A DNA stretch of 64,000 nt from Escherichia phage W70. Both the position numbers and the translations under genes were made by a program. The notes under the pieces are model-generated. The model ran no database searches and was not told where the DNA came from. It saw only the letters and a list, made by a program, of their open reading frames with translations. The DNA lies in sequence record OP778610. One strand, written 5' to 3'. Shown here one piece after another: positions 9,230 to 9,680 of this stretch (positions within the stretch are counted from its first letter, which is position 1; each line of letters begins with the position of its first letter).

Positions 9230-9680
9230 TGTTCCTCCGTGGCATGAATGCCACTCTGTGGACAATAGGCATTACTCTGTAGACAATCGGAATAACATGA
9301 AGTAGGTCAGTCTCTTCAGAAAGTCTTGACCATTGTGGAAATATATGAAGTAATCCGTCAACCAAAATGGTTTACATTGTGGAAAGTAAACCAAAATGGT
9401 TTAGATGTGGGTAAACAGATGTGCCTCGACAGGCAAAGTGGTGTGTCTCAGTAGGCCAACAGTGGTTACTCTTTAGGCAAACTACCTGATTTTGGGAGGA
9501 ACTGATATTTGTGGGAATCGTTGTACGATATTTGGGCATTATTGTATGCAGGGTACAACAGTTTGGAAGGACGATATAGTTTGGTGGGCACAACATTTTT
9601 GTGGAGGGTAGAACATTTTTGGGGCATATATGTTTGGTTGCAATCCAGATGCAAAAAGCACCCACTTTTGGGGTGCTCTC
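9230..9680. repeat. degenerate array of TGTGG/TTTGG-containing repeats
   Basis: More than 15 copies at 17-25 bp spacing; reverse complement of the CCACAAA motif at 7.6-8.0 kb. Confidence 0.55.
9652..9677 (-). terminator. rho-independent terminator (minus strand)
   Basis: AGCACCCC-loop-GTGGGTGCT hairpin plus T-run on minus strand. Confidence 0.6.

Follow-up and report, generated by a model that had tools for sequence, protein, structure and literature searches.

Reiterated short elements direct cleavage at several well-known packaging sites, namely the pac site of phage P1 with its hexamers on both sides of the cut, cosB of phage lambda with its R sites, and pacL/pacR of SPP1. For phages whose chromosomes end in a direct terminal repeat (DTR), recognition and duplication of the ends have been worked out only partly, and for T7-like podoviruses, where CCTAAAG arrays named SRL and SRR lie just outside the repeat; to our knowledge, no function has been established for these T7 arrays themselves. 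Here we examine two arrays of short motifs of opposite polarity in Escherichia phage W70, in a stretch of 64,000 nt read on one strand from 5' to 3' (sequence record OP778610; hereafter the window, whose positions serve as coordinates throughout). The right array occupies 9230-9680 and is rich in TTTGG and TGTGG, while units of the reverse-complement type, such as CCACAAAG, lie at 7.6-8.0 kb. A first-pass annotation made from the letters of the sequence had placed an HNH endonuclease gene at the centre of this arrangement. We find that the arrays probably flank a DTR of 462 bp, i.e. a concatemer junction that would become the genome ends, and we tentatively propose that they are accessory cis-acting protein-binding sites of this junction that take part in recognising or processing the ends.

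The large rV5-like myoviruses are widely used in phage therapy and biocontrol, yet their end positions are rarely reported and the calls disagree (DTR, headful, permuted). Within the Vequintavirinae, a 514-bp DTR was determined for the Mydovirus phage KPP-1 by read coverage and PhageTerm (PMC9862379), a DTR was reported by PhageTerm for KPP-X1, and a 475-bp DTR was described for phage Jab, a Septuagintavirus relative and the nearest published relative of the W70 clade (PMC13538427). Such reports give the presence and length of the repeat only, and no description of boundary palindromes or flanking arrays was found in the literature searched. From its sequence matches, W70 is itself a Vequintavirinae (Septuagintavirus-like) myophage of E. 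coli, of the rV5-like kind. The 2.4 kb around the right array is 87-97% identical to the Vequintavirinae E. coli phages A73, A7_1, A5-4, LTH01 and UPEC06, with weaker matches to Certrevirus phages of Cronobacter and Pectobacterium; in exact-match look-ups of W70 proteins, A73 was the sole match.

A predicted terminal repeat at the convergent gene junction

Genes of the window are read from the plus strand up to 7466, from the minus strand between 9693 and about 59.05 kb, and from the plus strand again from 59.4 kb. The convergent junction noted in the first-pass annotation is thereby borne out, with plus-strand genes stopping at 7466 and minus-strand genes at 9693. The intervening 2.2 kb or so (7467-9692) is non-coding but for the gene of a 162-aa HNH_3 endonuclease. 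Comparison with related phages places the probable terminal repeat inside this junction, and the chromosome of W70 quite likely ends at 8066 and 8527. The elements of the repeat are as follows.

8066 to 8527, plus strand: predicted DTR of 462 bp, by homology to the duplication at the ends of the UPEC06 record
8061 to 8069, no strand: left boundary site TGCTA/GACA, a near-palindrome (the slash marks the boundary); predicted repeat start at 8066; the UPEC06 duplication starts at the homologous GACAAAAC
8524 to 8532, no strand: right boundary site TGCC/TGGCA, a palindrome; predicted repeat end at 8527; the UPEC06 duplication ends in ...GCCGTGCC
8301 to 8327, plus strand: 27-bp element GTGCGTATAAGTTGTATTATGTTAAAT, inside the predicted repeat and conserved across five genera
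8477 to 8483, plus strand: GATATTT, at -50 (inside) from the right boundary and again at 8551-8557 (+24)

The UPEC06 record carries the same 462 bp at both of its ends, 100% identical to each other and 98.5% identical to W70 8066-8527. The KPP-1 repeat is located at the syntenic convergent, gene-poor junction. Klebsiella phage DP, also a Mydovirus, has identical annotated 514-bp repeat_regions at 1-514 and 145135-145648; after correction of orientation, the start of the DP repeat corresponds to the end of that of KPP-1, and the other boundary is the first position of the KP12 record.

All the boundaries compared coincide with the centre of a near-palindromic 9-mer of the type TGYYWRRCA, and independent records begin or stop at the same centres. 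The DP boundary sites read TGTTA/AACA and CGTC/TAGCA, sites of this kind also mark the KPP-1 boundaries, and Certrevirus CR3 has perfect TGCCTGGCA sites, two such sites being 444 bp apart in CR3 and in phiTE. The right boundary site is kept in all relatives and in Certrevirus, inside an 83-bp stretch conserved as far as the Cronobacter/Pectobacterium phages. Predicted from these boundary sites, the repeats measure 462 bp in A7_1, 460 bp in A5-4, 474 bp in LTH01, 567 bp in A73 and 443 bp in CR3 and phiTE; that of A73 holds a 103-bp internal duplication. At the left boundary of W70, a 21-bp duplication (8041-8061, TTTGCTA ATGAGCGTAGCTCT TTTGCTA) was observed, which is shared with A73 and A7_1 and is not found in A5-4, LTH01 or UPEC06.

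Other records were less informative on this point. LNA4 is an error-rich long-read record whose ends overlap over only 171 bp at 96%, and the rV5 record is linearised at rIIA. A scan of viral contigs for the repeat-start sequence gave 0 matches, and nearly all matches to the right-boundary sequence in viral and metagenome contigs were to unrelated DNA.

Two further elements of the repeat are conserved. The 27-bp GTGCGTATAAGTTGTATTATGTTAAAT is nearly unchanged in Septuagintavirus-like, Certrevirus, Henunavirus, Seunavirus-like and Mydovirus phages, and is possibly the real recognition site or a promoter. GATATTT stands at -49 or -50 from the right boundary in 9/9 phages compared, plus two IMG/VR contigs; the copy at +24/+25 is present in 5/9 of these phages (including CR3 and phiTE), plus the IMG/VR contigs L195 and L197. 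As two or three array units contain GATATTT, the arrays were considered as reiterations of the -50 element, but a weight matrix of the units fails to support this and the idea was rejected. The motifs TTTGG/TGTGG are nearly missing from the terminal repeat itself (0-2 copies). The predicted repeat also contains five copies of GTTGG (8179-8280), in place of which the Certrevirus and Mydovirus repeats carry ATTCTCAT/ATGAGAAT units, and a C-run, CCCCCTCCCCCTCCCCC, at 8497-8513, just inside its right end. C- or G-rich runs are found near the same boundary, on varying sides, in Certrevirus, KPP-1, DP and LNA4.

The right array

On the plus strand, TTTGG/TGTGG reaches 13 copies per 450 bp at 9251-9700, which is the maximum of the 64 kb (window mean 0.91, sd 1.25). 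Between 9152 and 9657 there are 13 copies against 2.94 +/- 1.5 expected, a count attained in 0/3000 dinucleotide-preserving shuffles, and the sub-tract 9481-9657 holds 8 copies against 2.06 in such shuffles (1/3000). Since these counts exceed those in dinucleotide shuffles of the same DNA, the enrichment reflects a motif and not only an effect of composition. Its polarity is shared by the relatives: in six phages the right arm has 14-16 copies on the plus strand and 0-3 on the minus strand, and in the right arms of the Certrevirus phages CR3 and phiTE, whose spacers cannot be aligned to W70, there are 8 plus-strand copies against 1 on the minus strand.

The array had initially been described as more than 15 copies at a spacing of about 20 bp. 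While its enrichment was confirmed, the literal units (A/T)TTTGG and TTGTGG occur only 8 times in 9230-9680 and TTTGG/TGTGG 13 times; the higher figure (about 16) is reached only if the degenerate units TGTAG and AGTGG are admitted. The regular spacing is likewise confined to 9491-9633 (gaps of 19, 21, 31, 18, 20, 18 and 15 bp), a sub-array of eight units with a median spacing of 19 bp; further left the gaps widen to 28-100 bp. Tandem Repeats Finder reported just 2.1 copies of a 20-bp unit, at 9580-9620. The right array is in fact a mosaic of three unit types, the common part of which is only a T-run+GG core:

9156 to 9188, plus strand: conserved box TTTTGGCGGGGAGGTATAAAACATAAAAAGTGG, with which the TTTGG units right of the HNH island begin; found in all relatives, CR3, PBES02 and phiTE
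9254 to 9415, plus strand: variable middle part, in which direct repeat D9 was detected, with CTCTGT(G/A)GACAAT twice, at 9254 and 9275 (CTCTGTGGACAAT units)
9361 and 9390, plus strand: 29-bp ACCAAAATGGTTTAxAT(T)GTGG units of the variable middle part, from reading of the sequence
9481 to 9656, plus strand: regular part, eight T-run+GG units starting at 9491, 9510, 9531, 9562, 9580, 9600, 9618 and 9633
9657 to 9677, minus strand: intrinsic terminator of the minus block, with the stem AGCACCC/GGGTGCT followed by TTTTT on the minus strand, from reading of the sequence

The box at 9156 carries TTTTGGCGGGGAGG; this TTTGGCGGGAGGGTAAAAAC box is the right-hand copy nearest to the boundary and is kept across genera. 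In HNH-free relatives and in CR3, the right-side TTTGG units begin 39-200 bp from the boundary. The variable middle part differs among relatives in the types and numbers of its units, of which the CTCTGTGGG-type also occurs in Certrevirus. The regular part (G 28.8%, C 11.3%) comprises 7-8 units in the relatives, with spacing kept in all six. What had been taken as the last copy of the array, "TTTTGGGG" at 9667, proved to be loop and stem of the minus-block terminator. Only a core of 5-7 nt is shared by otherwise divergent units, which argues for selection on this core.

A functionless origin of the arrays was considered at this point. The units could be decayed products of tandem duplication and unequal recombination in dispensable DNA beside recombinogenic ends, in which case the uniform polarity of one arm would reflect descent from a single duplicated unit. 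In line with the recombination hotspot suggested in the first-pass annotation, the region proved special, non-coding and prone to recombination, with unit numbers varying among relatives and endonuclease insertions present in three lineages. In keeping with a functionless origin, unit number and type differ among close relatives to the extent that whole sub-blocks are present or absent, the repeat of A73 contains its 103-bp duplication and the left site its 21-bp duplication, the three endonuclease insertions are independent and tolerated, and Mydovirus manages without arrays. Neutral decay would not, however, retain a 5-nt core in eight divergent units; the same polar core is found in Certrevirus between unalignable spacers, and the spacing of the regular sub-array is kept in all six relatives. 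We therefore consider it unlikely that the arrays are without function.

The regular sub-array also invites comparison with the iterons of a replication origin, at which a phage initiator would bind the units of about 20-bp spacing at 9481-9656 and open nearby AT-rich DNA. The conserved core of the eight units and their median spacing of 19 bp would suit such an origin, as would the AT-rich stretches in the same non-coding region (7850-7930), the replication and nucleotide-metabolism genes of the adjoining minus block, and a local extreme of the cumulative GC skew near 10 kb. The change in GC skew, however, occurs where the coding strand switches, and it therefore provides no independent information on an origin. 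Moreover, iterons are usually well-conserved units of 17-22 bp and those of W70 have only 5-7 nt in common, no initiator-like gene lies beside the array (Pfam, PHROG), DnaA-box-like sites are unclustered and none is perfect, and a polarity mirrored across the terminal repeat would be unexpected. An origin is in our estimation improbable here. Neither of the replication functions raised in the first-pass annotation gained support: an origin would lack both a nearby initiator gene and a DnaA-box cluster, and for a terminus the GC-skew analysis showed merely that skew follows gene orientation.

The tract of the right array is non-coding and probably untranscribed. Terminators point into it from both sides, promoter-like sites are weak, and relatives differ in it by frame-breaking indels (not divisible by 3). 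The same transcriptional layout weighs against a repeated non-coding RNA, such as a mimic of a type III antitoxin, which was considered together with sites for host factors (DnaA boxes, Chi-like). Phage phiTE is said to carry expandable pseudo-ToxI (ToxI-like) repeats, and some W70 units resemble TGTGGA(T)AA or TGGTGG. No Rfam family was found at E <= 1 in 6500-10500, however, and there was no fold signal (z 0.48 and -1.89), so that this explanation appears very improbable indeed. DnaA boxes were rejected as such: of 37 one-mismatch matches in 64 kb, only three lie in the non-coding arms (7641, 9257 and 9406) and none is perfect. Chi was rejected as well, since the one GCTGGTGG of the window is at 58059, outside the region, and the polarity of the G-rich strand would be wrong for RecBCD entering from the nearer end. 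Finally, an FtsK-gamma-like phage protein that would read polar G-rich motifs was considered and dropped. The 89-aa "DNA translocase FtsK" of UPEC06 (L005, 2170-2439) has no Pfam match at E <= 1, and in the first 12 kb of the window it gave only a weak tblastn match of 25% identity, at 10342-10581 on the minus strand and thus outside the plus block; the annotation of this UPEC06 protein looks unreliable.

The left arm and the inverted relation

Four features were delineated in the left arm, the last of which is the left array proper:

7474 to 7492, plus strand: hairpin after the last plus-strand gene, with a poor T-tail in the plus direction; the terminator scan reports only a minus-strand terminator-like site
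7491 to 7680, plus strand: C-rich, G-poor tract with CCACAAA at 7604, 7645 and 7668 and six TAATC
7699 to 7850, no strand: copy A of ATTGCCAGAGTATGGNGG (7699-7716) and a long hairpin with arms at 7736-7756 and 7820-7840 (21 nt, 90%)
7959 to 8009, plus strand: left array, with CCACACAAAG, CCACAAAG and CCACAAAAG at 7959, 7979 and 8002

The left array stands 57-107 bp left of the left boundary and its 3 copies compare with 0.55 in shuffles (25/3000). The relatives have 1-4 units of (C)ACAAAGAGG, and the CACAAAA-type copy nearest to the left boundary is kept across genera. The hairpin element at 7699-7850 has no match in Rfam. ATTGCCAGAGTATGGNGG itself occurs twice, 418 bp apart, at 7699-7716 outside and at 8117-8134 inside the predicted terminal repeat, and each copy is downstream of three CCACAAAG units. 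The six TAATC copies of the C-rich tract fall within 7529-7645.

The two arms had been described as an inverted pair, which stands at the level of the motif but does not extend to a long inverted repeat. CCACAAA has 5/14 of its copies in the window at 7604-8002, and TTTGTGG has 2/5 of its copies, at 9508 and 9598, in the right array. The arms share 116 inverted 6-mers against 67.5 +/- 10.3 in shuffles and 35 inverted 7-mers against 17.2 +/- 5.2 (0/1000), a level of 7-mer sharing similar to that found in other 500-bp stretches of the genome. As the best inverted match between the arms is just 18 nt at 78%, this is not an inverted repeat in the usual sense; the link between the right array and the CCACAAAG copies is a common core of 6-7 nt. 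The second strongest cluster of the reverse-complement type (CCAAA/CCACA, 12 per 450 bp on the plus strand) was found at 58400-58920, beside the divergent promoter region and inside three small minus-strand ORFs (58328..59048). It was discarded as a partner array, because it lies in coding ORFs, whose codon or amino-acid composition probably accounts for it.

The composition of the left tract (C 30.4%, G 9.4%) raises the possibility that both arms act at the level of RNA, as Rho-utilisation (rut) tracts. Read-through transcripts, C-rich, G-poor and unstructured, would load host Rho, which would stop transcription before it reached the terminal repeat or opposing transcription; the inverted polarity of the arms would then follow from convergent transcription and not from the repeat. 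The left arm contains the most C-rich, G-poor 180-nt plus-strand stretch of the 64 kb (7491-7670; C 57, G 15), and 9461-9640 is the third most G-rich, i.e. C-rich in minus-sense RNA; both arms are biased opposite to the neighbouring genes. In the read-through sense, the C/G ratio is 3.2 over 7500-7680 and 2.55 over 9481-9657, as expected of rut composition; in each of the six Septuagintavirus-like phages, the 180 nt behind the gene blocks have ratios of 3.1-4.6 (left) and 2.0-2.5 (right). A good intrinsic terminator is lacking in the plus block, the regular sub-array keeps its position relative to the end of a gene block rather than to the repeat, and the centroid fold leaves most of the minus-sense RNA of 9481-9657 unpaired. 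On the other hand, the motif count in this sub-tract exceeds that of composition-keeping shuffles (8 against 2.06; 1/3000), which indicates that a specific core is conserved, and Rho loading needs none. The minus block already possesses a good intrinsic terminator at 9657-9677. The asymmetry is weak in Certrevirus (1.3-1.45) even though polar TGTGG units persist there, it is missing on the left in DP (0.55), and the DNA that holds the CCACAAAG copies by the repeat (7940-8065) is not rich in C (C/G 0.88). On balance we regard a rut function as possible though doubtful. It would not be mutually exclusive with a role of the arrays in end recognition.

The HNH island

The HNH gene, which the first-pass annotation took to be flanked by the arrays, belongs to a small island immediately right of the predicted repeat:

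8528 to 9152, plus strand: HNH homing-endonuclease island, with a promoter-like site at 8568-8597, the coding sequence (CDS) at 8632-9120 and a bidirectional terminator at 9128-9151

The CDS matches Pfam HNH_3 (E 5.5e-13) and PHROG 99. The island is not present in A73, A7_1, A5-4, LTH01 or UPEC06, the sequences of which align to W70 up to 8537 and again from about 9247, with 284-379 bp of unrelated non-coding DNA between; a homologous HNH gene occupies the same spot in phiTE. As the segment is swapped for unrelated DNA in the relatives, sequence comparison identifies the HNH gene as a homing-endonuclease insertion, and its absence from these five phages contradicts the flanking arrangement initially claimed. 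The W70 flank 8528-8560 resembles Certrevirus and not the nearest relatives, as co-conversion during homing would yield. The Seunavirus-like IMG/VR contig L195 (reverse complement 1080-2540) has a different, 1.4-kb ORF about 150 bp right of the same site. In three lineages, then, insertions of mobile-endonuclease type lie right of the right boundary: W70 (8528-9152), phiTE (L010, 2741-3400) and L195. The suggestion of a mobile-element boundary accordingly applies to the small HNH island and not to the arrays. A role of the HNH protein as a packaging-associated nuclease of the HK97 type was also considered and rejected, because a protein missing from five close relatives is not essential.

A possible role of the arrays at the concatemer junction

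In a concatemer, the elements would follow one another in this order. Left to right, plus-strand genes, the C-rich tract, the hairpin, the AT-rich stretch at 7850-7930 and three CCACAAAG units precede the left site, the repeat and the right site; then come the HNH island, the conserved box (9156), the variable units, the eight regular units, the terminator and the minus-strand genes. From either chromosome end inward, the same T-run+GG core is encountered after the repeat.

We propose the following model for this arrangement. The predicted DTR would occur once per concatemer junction and at both ends of virion DNA. The arrays may bind a sequence-specific protein that takes part in end formation or packaging, the simplest candidate being the small subunit of the terminase or one of its partners, and the bound protein would help to build a two-fold-symmetric complex at the junction that loads or orients the end-making complex. 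Two nicks on opposite strands, 462 nt apart and each directly behind the fifth base of a TGYYWRRCA site, would be made by one activity, and strand-displacement synthesis would then copy the 462 nt and so provide a repeat for each daughter chromosome, in the manner of the T7-type model. The observed ends lie just past the central base at the left site and just short of it at the right site, positions that fit nicks after the fifth base with strand displacement, and a two-fold-symmetric geometry would match the mirrored polarity of the arrays. Within such a complex the arrays are probably accessory and not core, given that their copy number varies, that an insertion of 560 bp (HNH) between repeat and array is tolerated and that Mydovirus lacks them.

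Several observations weigh against this model. The ends of W70 are taken from those of its relatives, and not all reports agree on DTR ends: the Certrevirus phages CB7 and phiTE were reported as circularly permuted (BAL-31, coverage) and one Vequintavirus was called headful by PhageTerm, so that DTR ends are not established subfamily-wide. TTTGG/TGTGG arrays are missing from Mydovirus phages whose DTRs are proven, and other local repeats, GATATTTT and CAGATGGTG, are found there instead. The motifs of the left and right arms have in common only their short core of 6-7 nt. The distance of the regular sub-array is fixed to the minus-block terminator and not to the terminal repeat, from which it is separated by 450-600 bp in the relatives and by about 960 bp in W70 owing to the HNH island. 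The weight matrix of the regular units ranks the GATATTT elements at -50 and +24 only 2303rd and 5544th, respectively. Lastly, no terminase gene was found within the 64-kb window, and the neighbouring ORFs gave no informative Pfam or PHROG match, leaving no recognisable DNA-binding protein beside the arrays.

A more specific version of the model, which we consider rather unlikely as a whole, would treat the junction of the Vequintavirinae as a "giant cos". One nicking activity would act on two inverted TGYYW/RRCA sites about 440-520 bp apart, oriented by the polar arrays (CCACAAAG, TTTGTGG) and by GATATTT at -50/+24, with strand displacement duplicating the repeat. If true, the arrays would mark the first time that recognition arms have been defined for a DTR-type packaging site in a large myovirus.

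The observation from which this work started is thus partly confirmed; its interpretation is supported as regards a special junction, and the specific suggestions attached to it do not hold. A by-product, the definition of the conserved end sites to the base pair, is more solid and more useful than any function proposed for the arrays. The analysis yields base-pair predictions of both end sites and conserved cis elements across four to five genera, which would make correct linearisation and annotation of rV5-like genomes possible, together with a testable role for the flanking arrays. As the right arm tolerates insertions of 0.5-1.4 kb, it would offer a safe insertion site. Should the rut explanation be true instead, the arms would show how these phages insulate the packaging site from convergent transcription.

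Neighbouring genes and other regions of the window

The minus block encodes ribonucleotide reductases, a ligase, an exonuclease and a thymidylate synthase, and a 132-aa protein flanking the junction is clade-specific. Five tRNAs lie at 61.4-63.1 kb in the second plus block, the one nearest to the junction being at 61.4 kb. RCC1/WD40_RLD-like repeats are encoded by three paralogous genes that follow one another on the minus strand at 12219-15717 (380, 414 and 399 aa); these paralogues have the PHROG label "regulator of chromosome condensation" and distant homologues in jumbo phages. An AT-rich divergent intergenic region at 59050-59400, between the minus and plus blocks, is a candidate early control or origin region. 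It contains several direct repeats (AAAAGATCT-type four times, ATGAATGTAATGAATAA twice and CATAAAGGGTTTGRC twice), and the second copy of CATAAAGGGTTTGRC continues into a TTGACA...TAAGAT promoter-like site.

Comparison with known systems

Of the systems compared, the SRL/SRR arrays of T7 share with W70 imperfect repeats of about 7 nt at irregular 10-30-bp spacing, just outside a short DTR (checked on the T7 sequence), which stand in non-coding DNA on both sides of the concatemer junction. The motifs are unrelated, however, and a W70-type phage is a 140-kb myovirus without an RNA polymerase of its own. The T7 units are moreover in direct orientation on both sides and also inside the repeat, whereas those of W70 have opposite polarity and leave the repeat nearly motif-free, which makes W70 a different arrangement of a similar idea.

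The resemblance to pac and cos sites consists in repeated short elements that flank defined, predicted cleavage sites. In W70, however, two predicted sites 462 bp apart bound a repeat, the arrays are 60-1100 bp away and vary in number, and the terminase genes are not adjacent; binding of terminase to the arrays is a proposal only. Iteron origins (the ori/crr octamers of P4, plasmid iterons) likewise have direct copies of a short motif at a spacing of about two helical turns, yet the W70 core is much shorter and is accompanied by no neighbouring initiator gene, DnaA-box or clear unwinding-element arrangement. What W70 shares with rut sites is a weakly structured tract, some 180 nt long and in the read-through sense rich in C and poor in G, that follows each transcription unit; it departs from them in a pentamer core over-represented beyond composition and in that one of the units already has a good intrinsic terminator.

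The DTRs of other Vequintavirinae (KPP-1, DP, KPP-X1 and Jab) are situated, like that predicted for W70, at a convergent gene-poor junction, with a length of 475-514 bp against 462 bp and the same type of boundary site. The internal 27-bp and GATATTT elements are common to both. The difference lies in the TTTGG/TGTGG arrays, which are present beside the predicted repeat of W70 and missing from Mydovirus.

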